A DNA stretch of 64,000 nucleotides. It comes from a virus. Below the pieces are notes generated by a model. It did no database searches. It was given only the letters and a program-made list of their open reading frames with translations, and was not told the DNA's origin. The first letter of the stretch is position 1. Every line of letters starts with the position of its first letter. Made by a program: the position numbers and the translations under genes. The stretch spans positions 1 to 64,000 of IMG/VR virus record IMGVR_UViG_3300028030_000009. One strand, written 5' to 3'. Of the stretch, positions 13,692-20,665 are shown piece by piece.

Positions 13692-13751
13692 TCTCTAATC
13701 CTTGCGCAAGTTTTATGAAAGTGTAGTATATTGGCCAATACACTTGATGGT

Positions 13752-13760
13752 ATTATAACA
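13752..13760 (-). promoter_or_regulatory. extended -10 promoter (TGTTATAAT) for the virion block
   Basis: TGnTATAAT 61 bp upstream of the 13691 start. Confidence 0.6.
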
Positions 13761-13777
13761 AAGAAGGGTTATTTTTC

Positions 13778-14059
13778 TTACGGAAGATTGAAGTGTGCTG
13801 GAGACATGTATTCTGTTCCCGGCTCTTCAAATAGGACAAGTTCGCCGCCAGGGAGGACAATTCCTGTTATATCCAAGTGTGTGACCCCGGTTGTCTCTAT
13901 CCTATTAAGTTCACTTATTGCAAGCCTTATGAACTCTGGTGAGTTCTGGTACATTCTGTCAACATGGATTGGTGGTGTCACAGCATATGGAGCATTTTTA
14001 TCGTTGACTATTGTCAGGAAGATGAGCGGAGTTGGATATTGTGATGTTGTACCAGTCAT
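13778..14059 (-). CDS. hypothetical protein
   Basis: start re-assigned to MTGTTSQ, with ATGA overlap with the upstream small ORF. Confidence 0.6.
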   Translation of the reverse strand: MTGTTSQYPTPLIFLTIVNDKNAPYAVTPPIHVDRMYQNSPEFIRLAISELNRIETTGVTHLDITGIVLPGGELVLFEEPGTEYMSPAHFNLP

Positions 14060-14160
14060 AGTCCAGCACCACACGACATGCAAACAACTGTAGTGGCAAA
14101 TGCCATCACAGCCACACCTATGAGTATGTACGCTACTAGCATTGGGTCATCAGTAAACAA
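14056..14160 (-). CDS. small membrane peptide (34 aa)
   Basis: GGAGG RBS, TTG start, hydrophobic LVAYILIGVAVMAFATTVV; TATAAT upstream. Confidence 0.45.
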   Translation of the reverse strand: MFTDDPMLVAYILIGVAVMAFATTVVCMSCGAGL

Positions 14161-14998: not shown

Positions 14999-15880
14999 AT
15001 GAGGATACCTGTGTTTTCAACTGGGGATATAACAATCGGCTCAATTGACAAAGAGTGGCTGAAGAATAACAACCCACTCATAAAATCATCTACAGGGGAA
15101 AGTGGAGCTCGAATTCCAGCTGTCGCTGTTGCGTATAAGCCTGATATCTTATATGATGACGGGGAAATAATTGTTCCAGGTGATTCGTTCTTCTTGATGT
15201 ACAGGTTTGACTTGTCGCATTTTAGGGGCGAGAAGGTGCCAATCGAAATTATCCCATATGAGCGTGATTCTGATATGGCATGGGTTCTTGTCGAGTATAC
15301 AAGATGCTTCAAGCATAGGGACAAGGTGCTCTCTGAAATTTTTGACGAAATCGTAGGCTCAAGACCGTTGTTTCTTAGTGAGTACAGGCGTGTTCGCATA
15401 GAAGAGCTTGTAAACACTATGTGGTCAGACACAGAGTCACCATTGTTTAGGAAAATCAGCCTCACTCCCGGAGACGACGGAGAAATAACATGGTCTGGAG
15501 CACACAACTCACTAAGAAAACATCTGTTCTTTGATGCGGCATCCCCGTTCGTGGAAAGATTCACATTTGAGCAGCAGGCCAAAATCCTTATCTCATCTCT
15601 TACTGTCGCCAAAAGCATTAGTGGCTTCAAGGATGTACTCTGTGCACAGCTTGGGTTTGATGCAGTCATGATTGCAATTGAAGCTGCTCTGCAAAAGGTT
15701 CGTGATGTTATGTACTTTGACGAAATATACAACTACACCAAAGAGAGTATTCTTGTTCTTGGGGAAATCGACTGGAAAGAGAAGGACAGGTATAGAGGAG
15801 TATCTGGAAGGTCTACTCTATTTGAAGACATTCGGGAACATAGCGATAGATTTCACGACAAGCACTCTTCACATTCTTGA
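14999..15880 (+). CDS. hypothetical protein
   Basis: 293 aa, AAGGAG RBS. Confidence 0.75.
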   Translation: MRIPVFSTGDITIGSIDKEWLKNNNPLIKSSTGESGARIPAVAVAYKPDILYDDGEIIVPGDSFFLMYRFDLSHFRGEKVPIEIIPYERDSDMAWVLVEYTRCFKHRDKVLSEIFDEIVGSRPLFLSEYRRVRIEELVNTMWSDTESPLFRKISLTPGDDGEITWSGAHNSLRKHLFFDAASPFVERFTFEQQAKILISSLTVAKSISGFKDVLCAQLGFDAVMIAIEAALQKVRDVMYFDEIYNYTKESILVLGEIDWKEKDRYRGVSGRSTLFEDIREHSDRFHDKHSSHS

Positions 15881-15888
15881 AATAATAG

Positions 15889-15897
15889 TGCTATAAT
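15889..15897 (+). promoter_or_regulatory. extended -10 promoter (TGCTATAAT) facing the non-coding region
   Basis: exact TGnTATAAT with no credible ORF downstream for ~890 bp. Confidence 0.6.
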
Positions 15898-15903
15898 ACT
15901 CCC

Positions 15904-16100
15904 AAGGATGGTGGACGCCCACTAGTGTTCCTATCCCAGCCACTACTCCAATGGCGGTTGAGCTGAAACCTTGACTTATAGCCTATCGGCTAGGTTAAGG
16001 TTCGGTTCAGCCGCTACGGAAAAGCGCCGCCCACCGCTTAGAAAGTGGCTATCGTAGGGGGTTTGCGTGTTGTACGACCACACCCAAAAACCCCCAAAAC
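15904..16100 (+). ncRNA. candidate structured non-coding RNA
   Basis: ~28 bp hairpin 15952-16016 with six G:U pairs, closing stem AGCCACT/AGTGGCT, side hairpin AAGCG/CGCTT, 3' GGGGGTTT/AAACCCCC stem; boundaries approximate. Confidence 0.55.
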
Positions 16101-16242
16101 CCCAAAACAAAACAACAACACTTCTTCTCAATACTACTATTCCTTTCCTATCTATACTCACTATATGATTCTTTGGCTGTTAGTACTCCTTTAATGGGGT
16201 TTGGTTTGCTTTGTATGTATATGGGTTGGGGTGGCTCCATAT

Positions 16243-16455
16243 GTCCAGAACACTTAGGCCAGAGCACCTATGTTATACGGAACACCAAAAATCGTACTAC
16301 AACCCGTAGTAAGCGTTTTTTTAGCAAAAATGAGTTTTCTACACCTTGGTGTCAAAAATATGTGTGGGCTTTTGTTGGTTATGCTCTGCTATGTTATACC
16401 TCTATACCTATTTTGGTCCGGAGCACCTGTCTTTTTCCCTATGATAGGGCACATT
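16243..16455 (+). repeat. dispersed ~13 bp repeat GTCCRGARCACYT
   Basis: GTCCAGAACACTT 16243, GGCCAGAGCACCT 16257, GTCCGGAGCACCT 16416; weaker copies at 16275 and 16443. Confidence 0.55.
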
Positions 16456-16770
16456 GGGCTTTTCTACCAATCAATTCTCGCTTAGTGTTTGCAAGAAACA
16501 ATACAGTACTACGGGTTGTAGAAAGTACTTGCGTATTGTTTTTTCTACGGGTTGTAGAACGCTTCTCTTGACAACCTTTTCTACGGGTTGTAGAAAATAC
16601 ATACAATCCTATCTGCTCTCTTGCAGCAAAGGTGATATCTCAACTTTTTACTACGGGTTGTAGAAAACAAAAATCATACTATTGTCTACGGGGTGTAGTA
16701 ATGGTATAATTGCAATACTGACTACGGGGTGTAGAAAGCTAGCTTTTAAATACTTTACTACGGGTCGTAG
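16297..16770 (+). repeat. CTAC-N5-GTAG repeat array (7 direct copies, 35-36 bp period) plus one inverted copy
   Basis: direct copies start at 16509, 16545, 16581, 16651, 16686, 16722, 16758; inverted CTACAACCCGTAG at 16297. Confidence 0.9.
16682..16710 (+). promoter_or_regulatory. sigma70-type promoter TTGTCT-17-TATAAT (extended -10) overlapped by a repeat
   Basis: -35 at 16682-16687, TGGTATAAT at 16702-16710; repeat 16686-16698 lies mostly between them. Confidence 0.65.
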
Positions 16771-16790
16771 AAAAAAATAAGGATTGAAAA

Positions 16791-17027
16791 ATGGAAGCTC
16801 TTGTTGATGTAGATGGTAGAGAGATAAACGTTGGAGACATTGTAGAGGAAGATGGGCATCTCTTTGAGATAGTGTGGCACAATGGAGAGTACATGGCTAA
16901 GTACTTCTATCCTGATGAGAGTAGAATCGGGAGCCTTGCTGATGTAACTTCAGAAGGTATCTGGCATAATTATGGATTGAAGGTTGTATCTTCCTGCAAC
17001 GAAAACATCGATAGGATTCTCAAATGA
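16791..17027 (+). CDS. YopX-like protein
   Basis: LVDVDGREINVGDIV...EIVW resembles the YopX DxxGxEIxxGDIV motif. Confidence 0.65.
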   Translation: MEALVDVDGREINVGDIVEEDGHLFEIVWHNGEYMAKYFYPDESRIGSLADVTSEGIWHNYGLKVVSSCNENIDRILK

Positions 17028-17668
17028 CATTCTCAGAGTTGAAGAGGAAAGCATATAATGAGGGCATGACTCTTGTTCCGTTGTATATACTTGTTGAAGA
17101 TTGGGGCGGGAGGCTATTCGGGAAAGAGCGGCTGTACAGAAAGAAGGATTTGATTGAAGGACCAATCCGTGTTCTGTCTTCCGATGAGATACGGTACAAC
17201 TTTGCTTTCCCGAACCCATTGATTGAGCCAGCTACAGTTAAGTACTCACCTACTATTCTCAAAAGACAGATTCTTACATCACGCTGCATCATCTTTCCAG
17301 GAAGAAAGACGTTCAATGGTGTTGCTTGGTATGCGCAGACTGACAGGAAGATTACAGTTCCACCATTCCACTCTTTTGTTGTTGACCCGAAAGGAGTTGA
17401 GCGCTCTGTGAGACTAATGCTTTGGTTTAACAGGAGAGATGTCATTGATGCAATCAATACAGAAATGCCGAAGAATGGAATGACAATATCTTTTATGAGA
17501 GAGCTGCCTGTGCCAGTAAATGAAACACCGAACGATGTGGTCGAAGAGTTTGTGGATTTAAACAACAAGAGGATGCAGCTTCTCTCTGGTGTTGAGATGA
17601 CATCGTCTAACATAAGAAAGCTTATTGAAAGATACGACAGGGCTGGGGAGGGGAATGCCCCAGCCTGA
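17024..17668 (+). CDS. hypothetical protein
   Basis: 214 aa, ATGA overlap with the upstream gene. Confidence 0.75.
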   Translation: MTFSELKRKAYNEGMTLVPLYILVEDWGGRLFGKERLYRKKDLIEGPIRVLSSDEIRYNFAFPNPLIEPATVKYSPTILKRQILTSRCIIFPGRKTFNGVAWYAQTDRKITVPPFHSFVVDPKGVERSVRLMLWFNRRDVIDAINTEMPKNGMTISFMRELPVPVNETPNDVVEEFVDLNNKRMQLLSGVEMTSSNIRKLIERYDRAGEGNAPA

Positions 17669-17824
17669 AAGGAGGTATGAGTGGCAAAAAAATCGTGCGA
17701 CTCCGTACGGACTGCCCGGCACTTACACGCCCTTTTTAGGACGGCGGTTTTTTACCGCAAACGAATAGTAACAAAAAAATTTACATAGGTCAACATAGGA
17801 ACACTATAGAACAAAGAGTTGATG

Positions 17825-17833
17825 TGGTATAAT
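17825..17833 (+). promoter_or_regulatory. extended -10 promoter TGGTATAAT
   Basis: upstream of the 17865 start. Confidence 0.55.
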
Positions 17834-17864
17834 TTTCCAAATAAAAGTTCCACGGAGGATAACG

Positions 17865-18056
17865 ATGAGTCTCATCCTTGTAGTATGGGCAATCATTACA
17901 GTAGCGTTACTGGTTGCAATAAAATCAAGAGACGAAGAGCTTGGAGTGTATGGGGTTATCGCGGTTTGTTTTTGGCCAATGGCGCTAATAGCATATATCA
18001 TTCATATTGCAACACATACACTGTTTTTTAAGCAGCAGCACACACCGGCACTATAG
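17865..18056 (+). CDS. small two-TM membrane protein
   Basis: GGAGG RBS; two hydrophobic stretches. Confidence 0.6.
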   Translation: MSLILVVWAIITVALLVAIKSRDEELGVYGVIAVCFWPMALIAYIIHIATHTLFFKQQHTPAL

Positions 18057-18158
18057 AAGCACTCGAAGCATTATCCCCAGAAAATGGGAATCTTGTTATG
18101 TTTTTAACTTTTTTAGTGTAGAATACTGTCTATAAAATACAACATTAGGACGGGGCAG

Positions 18159-18773
18159 TTGTTTAGCATACAAAATGCGTATTCATCAGCGATATCAGCT
18201 CTCTATGGGTTAAAGAGAAAAGACCCGTGCCCTTATACTTTCAGACTGTTTGGCCCTGCGCACAACAAAAGAGTTGTATTTGGCCCAGCTCAGTGGGGAA
18301 TATCTGTTTCTGAAATAGAAAATAGAATGTGGCTAAAGTCGCATGGGTTTGATATGAACGATATAGACAGGATTGAGAAAATATTGATGCTTGGGTCAAT
18401 AAGGAGCGATGACAAATTATTTTTGTCTTCTATGAACAGGCGACTAAAAGAAAAACAGCTTCCAATAGACCTTGAGACAAAAAAATGGTGTGGACTTGAA
18501 CTTAAAAGAATCTCCTCAATACAAGGGCTTGATTTCGCAAAAAGCTCGAACCTCATTGGCGCTCTTACTCTATGGCACAACATAAAATACCGTATCGAAG
18601 AAGGCTCACAGTTTCACGATAGATGGGCTTATGTTTCTGGCAAAAAAACAGACGGTGGCGCCAGGTTTGTTGCAGAGTTTTTGCATTGGAAACTGCAGAG
18701 AGAAGTGGCCGACGAGGACATGCAAGATATTGTCAAACGCTATGGTATAATCTTAGACAGAGTAAAATTCTAA
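18159..18773 (+). CDS. hypothetical protein
   Basis: 204 aa ORF. Confidence 0.65.
   Translation: MFSIQNAYSSAISALYGLKRKDPCPYTFRLFGPAHNKRVVFGPAQWGISVSEIENRMWLKSHGFDMNDIDRIEKILMLGSIRSDDKLFLSSMNRRLKEKQLPIDLETKKWCGLELKRISSIQGLDFAKSSNLIGALTLWHNIKYRIEEGSQFHDRWAYVSGKKTDGGARFVAEFLHWKLQREVADEDMQDIVKRYGIILDRVKF
18743..18751 (+). promoter_or_regulatory. extended -10 promoter TGGTATAAT
   Basis: within the 3' end of the previous gene, upstream of 18788. Confidence 0.5.
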
Positions 18774-18787
18774 GCAGTAGGTAAACC

Positions 18788-19678
18788 ATGGCAACACAAC
18801 CAGATGAACTATTATCAAAAGGACCTAGGGTCGTCCCCCATGATGCATCAGTAAGAGTTGCGACACAAGACAGTTCAGACCCAAAAACACTATATGGATT
18901 TAACGCCCTTGGGAACATGGCGTTTGGCGCAGGGTCTCTAGTTTCTCCAGTATCAAAAAAGCTTGTTGCTGGCAGAAGGCATCCGTCGCTGTATTCCGCT
19001 GGACTGAGAACACGGAACCTTGTTCTTGGAGGACTTGCTGGAGCAGCACTATCTACTCCGTTCGACTACCTTCAGTCAAAGGCTGAAGAAAGATATAGAA
19101 ATGATAAGGATTTCAACGCAAAGCACTTTGGGGCAATCCTCCTCCCAGCACTTGCAAGCGGTACGCTTGGAACCGGCGTGATGATGAATACTATCGACAC
19201 CATGAAGCTTGGCAATCGTGTTGGGACAAAGAAGATGGTTGCTGGAATCCTTTCTCCGAAAAGAAACATTAAGAGAACACGTCGTGAAATGGGAAGCATC
19301 GCAAGAGCATTTAGGGGTAAAAATATAGGTGGAGCCCTGCTGGGCGCATTGATGTTGGGCTCAAGCCTTATAGGTCCAGCACAGTACGCATATAGGACGC
19401 TCAGAGGGAAAAAAGACGAAGAGCTTAAAAAAGAGGCGTCTGCTCGAAACACAAATGACATTCTTCGCTCGCTTAGGGCAATTAAAAACAAGCTTGGAAA
19501 ATCAGCGGCAGGCATTGACAAGAAAAAGTTTGACACTGGACTTGGGTACTTTATTCTTGCCAGTGGAGGACTTGCAGCAGGTGAAAGCTTGCGAAGAAAA
19601 CTAAGAAAGCAAGAGACGGTTTATCCAGACCAAGCTGTGTCGAAAAGCATGTTTGAGGGCGTAAGAGTATATACATAA
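18788..19678 (+). CDS. basic Gly/Ala-rich protein, putative internal/ejection protein
   Basis: 296 aa; Gly-rich hydrophobic helices, KKEA|S motif. Confidence 0.7.
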   Translation: MATQPDELLSKGPRVVPHDASVRVATQDSSDPKTLYGFNALGNMAFGAGSLVSPVSKKLVAGRRHPSLYSAGLRTRNLVLGGLAGAALSTPFDYLQSKAEERYRNDKDFNAKHFGAILLPALASGTLGTGVMMNTIDTMKLGNRVGTKKMVAGILSPKRNIKRTRREMGSIARAFRGKNIGGALLGALMLGSSLIGPAQYAYRTLRGKKDEELKKEASARNTNDILRSLRAIKNKLGKSAAGIDKKKFDTGLGYFILASGGLAAGESLRRKLRKQETVYPDQAVSKSMFEGVRVYT

Positions 19679-19687
19679 AGGACGAAT

Positions 19688-20665
19688 ATGGCTGAAAATA
19701 TAACTTTTGAGGATTTGAATACTTTTGCAGACGCACTAAAATATGCAGACACATTGCTTCGGACTGCTGAGAGTGGGGTAGAGCTTTCATATGATTTCAT
19801 CAGGTCTTATGACTACTATGGAACAGTTAGAATGGCTATCCCAAATGGCACTCCTCTTGAGGCTCCTACAGTCGTATTGAAGAATTACGATGTGTCAAAA
19901 TTTTATCAATATACTCCACAGAGCATGTCAAACTTCTTCTATCCGAAGTCTTCTGGAGCAATCCCAGGTGTTGTTGTTGAGGATGCTTCAGCAGAAACTG
20001 ATATGTCACTTCTAACAAAGCAGTACATCGAATCAAACTCAATCCTTGTTGACGGACAGTTCTACGCAGACTACTGTTCGTATTCAAGCAATGTTGCTGT
20101 TGATGAAAACAGCGACGATGCAACAGCTGCAAAACTATCCATCCTTGATACAATGTGCTACAAAGTTAATGAGACGATTCCTGTTGATTCTGACGACTGG
20201 AACGTTTCAATTAAAACATCAATGGCTATGATTTCAAAAGCCAAGGGTTCAAATGTTTTTGTGTTTAGGCTCGCATCAATCCCAAGCATAAGGGCCAGAA
20301 ATATTAATGTGGCGTCATCTACGTACACAATTGACTGGCTCACAAACGGCTACATCCAGACAGATGGAATTATTGCGCAGGACGCAGAGATAACAGAAGA
20401 AGCGTATGAGAGCTCAAACGTGGCAACAATAAAAGCACTATATGACAGCAGTCTGAAGACAGCTGGCTCAACACTTGAGCTTCACCTTGAAGCCCCAATA
20501 GGCATTGCTGCTGCAAAACAAAAAGTTAATGATTTTATGGAGATTTCTGGAGCAAACTGTGTATACGAAGGAGAGGACGCATTCCTCACAAGAGAAGAAG
20601 GGGTTGAGCTCGCTAAGTATTTGATTAGAAAGTTAGCTGGAATCAAGCTCGGAATCCAGGTGTAA
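19688..20665 (+). CDS. hypothetical acidic protein, possibly structural
   Basis: 325 aa, AAGGA RBS. Confidence 0.75.
   Translation: MAENITFEDLNTFADALKYADTLLRTAESGVELSYDFIRSYDYYGTVRMAIPNGTPLEAPTVVLKNYDVSKFYQYTPQSMSNFFYPKSSGAIPGVVVEDASAETDMSLLTKQYIESNSILVDGQFYADYCSYSSNVAVDENSDDATAAKLSILDTMCYKVNETIPVDSDDWNVSIKTSMAMISKAKGSNVFVFRLASIPSIRARNINVASSTYTIDWLTNGYIQTDGIIAQDAEITEEAYESSNVATIKALYDSSLKTAGSTLELHLEAPIGIAAAKQKVNDFMEISGANCVYEGEDAFLTREEGVELAKYLIRKLAGIKLGIQV

Follow-up and report, generated by a model that had tools for sequence, protein, structure and literature searches.

The 64,000-nt stretch of viral DNA analysed here, referred to below as the window, contains a predicted non-coding RNA gene whose product, a structured RNA of about 192 nt (15904-16095, + strand), is a genuine member of a small, rare and uncatalogued family. 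Three RNA lineages are known, namely the window and two related phages. The hexamer GCCCAC is invariant among them and is shown twice in each RNA, at the tip of a 5' hairpin (H1) and in the loop of a further hairpin (P3), while the stems that present it vary in sequence and yet keep pairing. An earlier note on this DNA had described a phage non-coding structured RNA of no known class, and had proposed a comparison with Rfam and a collection of homologs with covariation as checks. This description is upheld, as no Rfam family matches and no ORF is common to the three RNA regions. Rfam 15 gave no match over the whole window at gathering scores, and none at the loci of the two relatives (L003 and L004). 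A search of 15700-17100 at E <= 10 returned only microRNA-precursor and snoRNA noise (E 0.15-2.6), and microRNA-precursor models at such relaxed thresholds match any long hairpin.

The window comprises bases 1-64000 of a 77,081-bp IMG/VR virus record, which was obtained from a hydrothermal vent metagenome and is estimated to be 41% complete. The phage is large and uncultured, and the genes on its record include those for a portal protein, DnaB, DnaG, the two subunits of ribonucleotide reductase, a C5 DNA methylase and an O/DnaD-like initiator. No other non-coding stretch in the window is as large as that around the RNA site; this stretch lies inside a short island of + strand genes with leftward structural genes on one side and leftward replication genes on the other. 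ARAGORN found no tRNA or tmRNA genes in the window, and searches of the ten ORFs neighbouring the RNA against Pfam and PHROGs gave nothing significant. The ORF adjacent on the upstream side (293 aa) is a singleton with no homolog except itself among 5.8 billion proteins, an IMG/VR search with three neighbouring proteins recovered no relatives, and DNA searches of a GenBank phage collection for near and distant similarity produced no match. Among sequencing runs, three DNA runs and no RNA run are listed for the stretch 15006-17100, and one of them (X1) is the likely source. The stretch recurs in a 2025 run of a different study (X2), where all of it lies on an 80-kb contig at about 96% identity, with 89 substitutions, a single 1-nt deletion at 16787 and no indel within the RNA, so that close relatives of the phage recur beyond the source sample. 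The third DNA run (X3) contains only fragments of the stretch. On the - strand, TATAATAC boxes at window positions 13757 and 14195 are oriented leftwards to the structural genes; since these leftward boxes overlap the + strand ORF 13731-14093, that ORF may not be a real gene.

Transcription of the RNA would be driven by a sigma-70-type promoter on the + strand (15868-15897), which matches the consensus at 11 of 12 positions and consists of a -35 element TTCACA at 15868, an 18-nt spacer and a TG-extended -10 element TGCTATAAT (TATAAT) ending at 15897. The promoter that had been proposed ahead of the structured RNA is thereby confirmed as a consensus match whose context is kept in all three phages. 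The predicted transcription start is A15904 or A15905, a purine two nt 5' of the first helix. Over 15889-16100, the + strand reaches a minimum free energy (MFE) of -92.5 kcal/mol with a z-score of -7.30, and none of 200 shuffles was equally stable, whereas the - strand is much weaker (z -1.87). The core (15904-16052) behaves likewise, with z -6.9 on the + strand against -2.8 on the - strand. Because of six G:U pairs in its long arm, only the + strand folds well, in line with the earlier claim of a fold at the RNA level that pairs on this strand only. The fold in the window exceeds chance, as is evident from the shuffle z-scores and from the same architecture, with different stem sequences, in two related phages.

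In the MFE and centroid structures, the RNA consists of a 5' hairpin, a three-way junction and a 3' hairpin, all on the + strand. The 5' hairpin H1 (15906-15936; MFE and helix table) combines GGAUGG/CUAUCC with GGACGC/GUGUUC (12/12 pairs, 3 G:U) below an apical loop CCACUA, and carries the first GCCCAC at 15917-15922. The junction is closed by P2, in which AGCCACU (15938-15944) pairs with AGUGGCU (16044-16050) at 7/7 positions of the helix table, exactly as had been suggested for an enclosing stem. Within the junction, the long arm P2a (15947-16020) has 32 pairs, only 1-2-nt irregularities and a UAUC tetraloop, and its core (15952-16016) contains the previously noticed long pairing, with 29 pairs of which six are G:U. 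P3 (16022-16039) is a 5-bp hairpin, AAGCG (16022-16026)/CGCUU (16035-16039), with an 8-nt loop CCGCCCAC that holds the second GCCCAC (16029-16034). The stem of this side hairpin had been recognised correctly by the earlier note, and its loop, given there as CGCCCACC, was off by one base. The 3' hairpin P4 (16057-16095), formed by GGGGGUUUGCGUG...CACACCCAAAAACCCCC in the MFE structure, is the stem GGGGGUUU...AAACCCCC that had been expected at this place.

A search with the portal protein identified six IMG/VR contigs at 58-65% identity. Two of the relatives, with portal identities of 63-65% to the window, bear the RNA, namely G001 (locus L003), a complete genome of 187,664 bp with direct terminal repeats, and G002 (locus L004), a 62-kb fragment. 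In a further relative, G003 (L006; 165 kb, estimated 88% complete), the flanking genes are kept and the spacer is AT-rich, with no recognisable RNA at the site, so that the RNA is dispensable in this lineage. The genomes of the relatives are broadly syntenic with the window, and their proteins are 25-65% identical. No tyrosine integrase was found in the complete relative G001, and these phages are therefore probably virulent. A search of the window with nhmmer led to L003 at the syntenic spot (E 3.5e-5), and the reciprocal search from L003 led back to the genome of the window as the sole match in 340 kb (E 1.2e-4). An nhmmer profile of the L003/L004 core detected nothing in G000, G003 or G004, and scans of viral, metagenome and genome collections with exact and degenerate patterns of the RNA returned the L003 and L004 contigs and otherwise chance or unrelated matches.

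Two further observations were made at these loci and during these scans. The interval that separates the structural module from the RNA site encodes, on the - strand of the relatives, a small lysine-rich protein, MKK...RPYRAPR... (L003 3150-2760, L004 3155-2750 and L020 2912-2680), which in L003 and L004 is followed by a short ORF of membrane-like type; in this interval, the window has different ORFs, including the 293-aa singleton. In addition, a search pattern led to L023 (7640-7800, + strand; IMGVR_UViG_3300045988_151338), an unrelated viral contig of high GC content, in which a hairpin RNA of about 100 nt lies between genes after a TACAAT box. This RNA starts with GGACGGUAGCCAGCCCAC and has a clean intrinsic terminator at its end. 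It scores just 11.6 bits against the model, contains a single GCCCAC and lacks a three-way junction; it probably represents another small RNA.

The window, L003 and L004 have in common the promoter, H1, the three-way junction, a G-poor and C-rich tail of 80-100 nt and an HsdS-like gene downstream. The three phages align without a gap over the stretch that opens with the -10 element and reaches into the beginning of H1, in the context GCTAYAATAC-N6-GGANGGT, and the promoters of the relatives have a -35 element TTGCAG or TTGCAT, a 17-nt spacer and a -10 element TATAAT or TACAAT. In L003 and L004, the order is promoter, folded RNA, G-poor tract, palindromic operators around a second promoter and a gene of about 215 aa. 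When the cores of L003 and L004 were folded singly, the MFE structures showed H1 followed by a three-way junction of P2, P2a and P3, with an 8-nt P3 loop. All listed helices pair fully in the helix table, with sequences that differ among the three phages. The upper H1 stem GGACGC/GUGUUC of the window corresponds to GGUGAGA/UUUCAUU in L003 and GGUUAA/UUAACU in L004, and P2 (AGCCACU/AGUGGCU) to GCCU/GGGC and GGAGCC(U)/(G)GGCUCC, respectively. Likewise, the P3 stem AAGCG/CGCUU corresponds to CACGUGA/UCACGUG in L003 and to UGCGU/ACGUA in L004.

The H1 loop is CCACUA in the window, CCACAAA in L003 and CCACAAC in L004; GC always stands just 5' of it, with a C-G closing pair and an adjoining pair that is G·U in the window and G·G in L003 and L004. 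The tip of H1 thus reads GC-CCAC(A/U)A in the three phages or, written more loosely, GC-CCACNNN-G. The P3 loops are CCGCCCAC in the window, ACGCCCAC in L003 and CUGCCCAC in L004, with the 8-nt consensus NNGCCCAC. The GCCCAC hexamer is not enriched genome-wide, as its counts match expectation, and a hairpin whose loop consists of 2 nt plus GCCCAC occurs in each of the three genomes in this RNA only. The proposed signature of the family, which combines the promoter context, the H1 tip, the P3 loop NNGCCCAC and the junction closed by P2, is present in the window, L003 and L004 and was not found elsewhere in five related genomes.

The comparison between the relatives provides evidence for the fold which is independent of its stability. 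A covariance model built from L003 alone recovered the L004 RNA over its full length (29.3 bits, E 4e-4) as the single significant match in 452 kb of DNA from phages both related and unrelated. In the alignment derived from this model, 52 of 52 cells pair and five pairs are changed on both sides, against 25-42% pairing and no two-sided change in slid controls, in which the 3' partners were moved by 1-3 columns; as only three lineages are known, the statistical power of this covariation is low. The cores of the relatives have unremarkable z-scores (-1.06 and -0.34) and are no more stable than shuffles, so that the support which they lend to the family lies in conservation and not in stability. 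Covariance models from L003 and from L003 together with L004 did not recover the window RNA, probably owing to the P2a expansion of about 60 nt and the different spacing of the window RNA, and the link between the window and its relatives is therefore made by nhmmer, by the ungapped alignment of promoter and H1, by the twin motifs and by synteny. MAFFT did not align P3 correctly among the three RNAs, and the structural alignment was made by hand in a script; its shuffle z-score, which is biased by construction, was not counted as evidence.

These comparisons also change the weight of the individual parts. The counterparts of the long arm to which the earlier note had drawn attention measure only 6 bp (L003) and 5 bp (L004) in the relatives, compared with 32 bp in the window. 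P2a is a unique element, which is not repeated in any of the five related genomes, and we infer that this G:U-rich arm is a lineage-specific peripheral expansion rather than part of the functional core. A pseudoknot or switch between GGUGG and CCACC, which had been considered as well, fares no better on inspection of the sequences: in L003 its counterpart is weaker and interrupted, and L004 lacks one. The counterpart of P4 in L003 is a longer hairpin of different sequence, and L004 has no strong equivalent, at most a weak one.

No U-tract follows the RNA in any of the three phages, and a terminator scan of 16057-16110 detected no intrinsic terminator; without a U-tract, P4 is not a canonical intrinsic terminator. 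In the window, P4 is followed by AAAACCCCAAAAC, and a C/A-rich tract of 90 nt that is entirely free of G starts within the 3' arm of P4 (16077-16166, + strand), forming a candidate rut region and 3' boundary zone. It is the longest such + strand run in the 77-kb record, and its best 80-nt window contains 31 C and no G. Equivalent tracts occupy the same relative place in L003 (35 C and 10 G per 100 nt) and L004 (29 C and 3 G per 80 nt). As the tract contains no G, neither an ATG, GTG or TTG start codon nor a Shine-Dalgarno sequence is possible within it. A C-rich, unstructured and untranslatable tract is the textbook signature of Rho utilisation, and since the tract is G-free, C-rich and unstructured, the 3' end of the RNA is probably Rho-dependent, as judged from base composition alone.

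Downstream of the RNA and on the same strand, all three phages carry the HsdS-like gene (17024-17668 in the window, 214 aa), whose homologs of about 215 aa in the relatives are 24-25% identical (E 4e-14), with profile matches in G001, G002 and G003. There are two further HsdS-like homologs, P0004 and P0005, of which P0005 had no match in the phage collection or among GTDB genomes, and the alignment of the four HsdS-like proteins is too divergent for a genome scan. The gene belongs to a conserved cluster of four (window 17024-20665; G001 58.9-62.1 kb; G002 9.7-13.4 kb; G003 153.1-155.5 kb), in which it is followed by genes for proteins of 204, 296 and 325 aa without detectable family; a PDB sequence search and the ESM Atlas returned nothing informative for these three. 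The 296-aa gene was detected in the two RNA-bearing relatives and has no tblastn match in G003, which is also the relative that lacks the RNA; as a lead to the partner of the RNA, this protein is weak.

Several known classes of RNA resemble the family in part. The pRNA of phi29 is phage-encoded and has a three-way junction, two arms that present loops and a dispensable 3' hairpin domain, and the RNA described here is of similar size and likewise has a three-way junction, two loop arms and a 3' hairpin. The host phage, in contrast, is a DnaB/DnaG phage of about 190 kb and not a phi29-like podovirus, the pRNA family (RF00044) is unmatched in Rfam, and the two loops are identical; as both are GCCCAC and not complementary to each other, a ring of the pRNA type could not form via loop-loop pairing. 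RNA C and RNA D of T4, a large virulent phage, are small, stable and structured and are processed from a tRNA cluster; our RNA shares with them its small size, its structure and its occurrence in a large, probably virulent phage, but has no tRNA genes nearby and a promoter of its own. A retron msr-msd was rejected, given that RVT_1 is unmatched at E <= 1 in the 77-kb record (41% complete) and that no msr model matches. A telomerase-like reading of the C4A4-like tail was equally discarded, as no reverse transcriptase was found in the same partial record.

Among explanations of function, the main rival to a stand-alone RNA, possible though doubtful, is that of a cis-acting 5' leader of the HsdS-like operon transcript, which would tune read-through as a processive antiterminator or as a Rho-dependent attenuator. 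HK022 put and lambda nut consist of two stem-loops right after an early promoter and before a termination-prone region, and the put fold begins close to the transcription start. Compared by description, the RNA has two stem-loops near its start with a termination-prone tract next, its fold begins a few nt from the predicted start as in put, each of the three phages has the rut-like tract after the fold, no intrinsic terminator lies between RNA and operon, and the HsdS-like gene keeps its orientation and its syntenic place relative to the RNA in spite of the low identity of the protein. The operon, however, has a promoter of its own flanked by palindromic operators in the three phages, the distance from RNA to gene varies from 395 to 1120 nt, with an array of seven repeats and one additional small gene intervening in the window, G003 retains the operon without the RNA, and alternative pairing of an anti-terminator with a terminator is not evident. 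An antisense RNA like c4 or CopA, whose two loops would pair with GUGGGC sites in its own downstream transcript or in phage mRNAs, block translation and trigger Rho-dependent polarity, is unlikely. The c4 RNA of P1/P7 does act with two loops on two targets in the same operon, with Rho-dependent polarity in its mechanism, and the present RNA resembles it as a small RNA upstream of an operon, on the same strand and with two candidate recognition loops; in the window, one exact GUGGGC (16363-16368) and one UUGGGC (about 16455) lie downstream on this strand. Such target sites are not conserved, as GUGGGC is missing downstream of the RNA in L003 and L004, where the best predicted duplexes form at non-equivalent places and in another register. 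Furthermore, no conserved GUGGGC exists at phage translation-initiation regions, genome-wide counts of the motif are as expected, the C4 family of Rfam (RF01695) is unmatched in the three phages, and the absence of a tyrosine integrase from G001 together with its direct terminal repeats makes a c4-like role in immunity unlikely. Antisense pairing to rRNA was rejected as well: in E. coli 16S and 23S rRNA, which may not be those of the host, complementarity is unremarkable, and the loops find GUGGG(C/U) three times, with no extended complementarity common to the three RNAs. As a separate observation, a transcript directly after the same GCTATAATAC box in G001 (about 149,279, - strand) would have at its 5' end a GUGGGC that complements the loops exactly, and a 484-aa ORF would follow 38 nt later; this start is seen in a single genome and may be due to chance.

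That the site encodes no functional RNA, its promoter-like sequence and hairpins being an intergenic by-product or remnants of DNA palindromes, is very unlikely. The small number of lineages, the relatives' cores that fold no better than shuffles and the lack of the RNA in G003 would suit such a reading, but the fold is specific to one strand owing to its six G:U pairs, and the promoter, H1, P3 and both GCCCAC are kept between phages whose proteins are 25-65% identical and whose surrounding intergenic DNA is unalignable. An origin-associated transcript that primes or opens a replication origin, either as primer or as activator, is still less likely, although a repeat array adjoins the RNA, the strand composition is extreme, and no non-coding region of the window is larger. 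The replication module (O/DnaD-like initiator, DnaB, DnaG) is about 40-48 kb away, the RNA of the tract is C-rich and not G-rich, which would disfavour a stable R-loop, and the repeats, which surround a promoter, vary among the phages in both sequence and copy number, so that operators fit them better than an origin. Least likely of all is the 6S-like decoy of RNA polymerase which the earlier note had brought up. As a class (RF00013 and relatives), 6S RNA shares with the present RNA the length of about 190 nt, the high content of structure and a promoter of its own, and such a decoy would be a plausible tool for takeover. The anatomy largely refutes it, as 6S RNA is a rod with paired ends and a large bubble, whereas here the 5' and 3' ends are unpaired, no stem closes them, a three-way junction takes the place of the central bubble, and the long arm, missing in the relatives, is almost perfectly double-stranded, with no bubble like that of an open promoter. 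In agreement with this, no 6S model matches at gathering scores over the whole window or at E <= 10 over 15700-17100.

The best explanation, which we put forward tentatively and with slightly less than even confidence, is that of an early, stand-alone, trans-acting RNA, a decoy or scaffold whose partner is recognised via the twin GCCCAC loops and whose transcription is ended by Rho. The promoter is of host type and conserved, so that expression is probably early; host RNA polymerase would synthesise a separate molecule of about 120-190 nt, and transcription would end in a Rho-dependent manner in the untranslatable, G-free and C-rich tract just downstream. The twin loops would be the working parts and would contact one partner twice, in which case the RNA might act as a decoy, sponge or scaffold during takeover, and the long G:U-rich arm of the window phage would be a peripheral addition. 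A variable scaffold that shows one hexamer twice is what is expected of recognition by a dimeric protein or of pairing with two like sites. Most simply, the partner would be a dimeric RNA-binding protein of the host or the phage; otherwise, it could be two GUGGGC-like sites on a host RNA. The conserved twin loops are thus compatible with the protein scaffold that had been named as an alternative in the earlier reading. A comparable layout is known from CsrB and RsmZ, protein-sponging small RNAs in which the short motif GGA is repeated in hairpin loops on a scaffold. The present RNA also combines an invariant motif in its loops with variable stems, a layout that implies a multivalent or dimeric partner, and differs in that the motif is GCCCAC instead of GGA, that it has two copies only and that the Csr/Rsm models of Rfam are unmatched.

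A more specific version of the trans-acting RNA, and a doubtful one, is a decoy for takeover in which the loops would mimic a paired recognition element of host RNA, such as two identical sites bound by a dimeric protein of RNA modification, RNA cleavage or defence, and the RNA would titrate this protein at an early stage of infection; in that case, Rho might also be engaged by the conserved G-free tail. If true, this would represent a new class of RNA-based phage factor for counter-defence or host shutoff. To our knowledge, phage structured RNAs with a known role are few and comprise pRNA, c4, RNA anti-CRISPRs and a handful of sRNAs.

Independently of its function, the RNA adds a new family to a poorly known clade of phages of about 165-190 kb from hydrothermal and other environmental metagenomes. 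The family is rare, with three lineages, and for the present constitutes a solid catalogue entry rather than a surprise. The lead of interest lies in the conserved twin GCCCAC loops, while the arm that first drew attention is peripheral. The signature of the family is clear and testable, with six bases shown twice on stems and arms of variable length, and points to a specific molecular partner.
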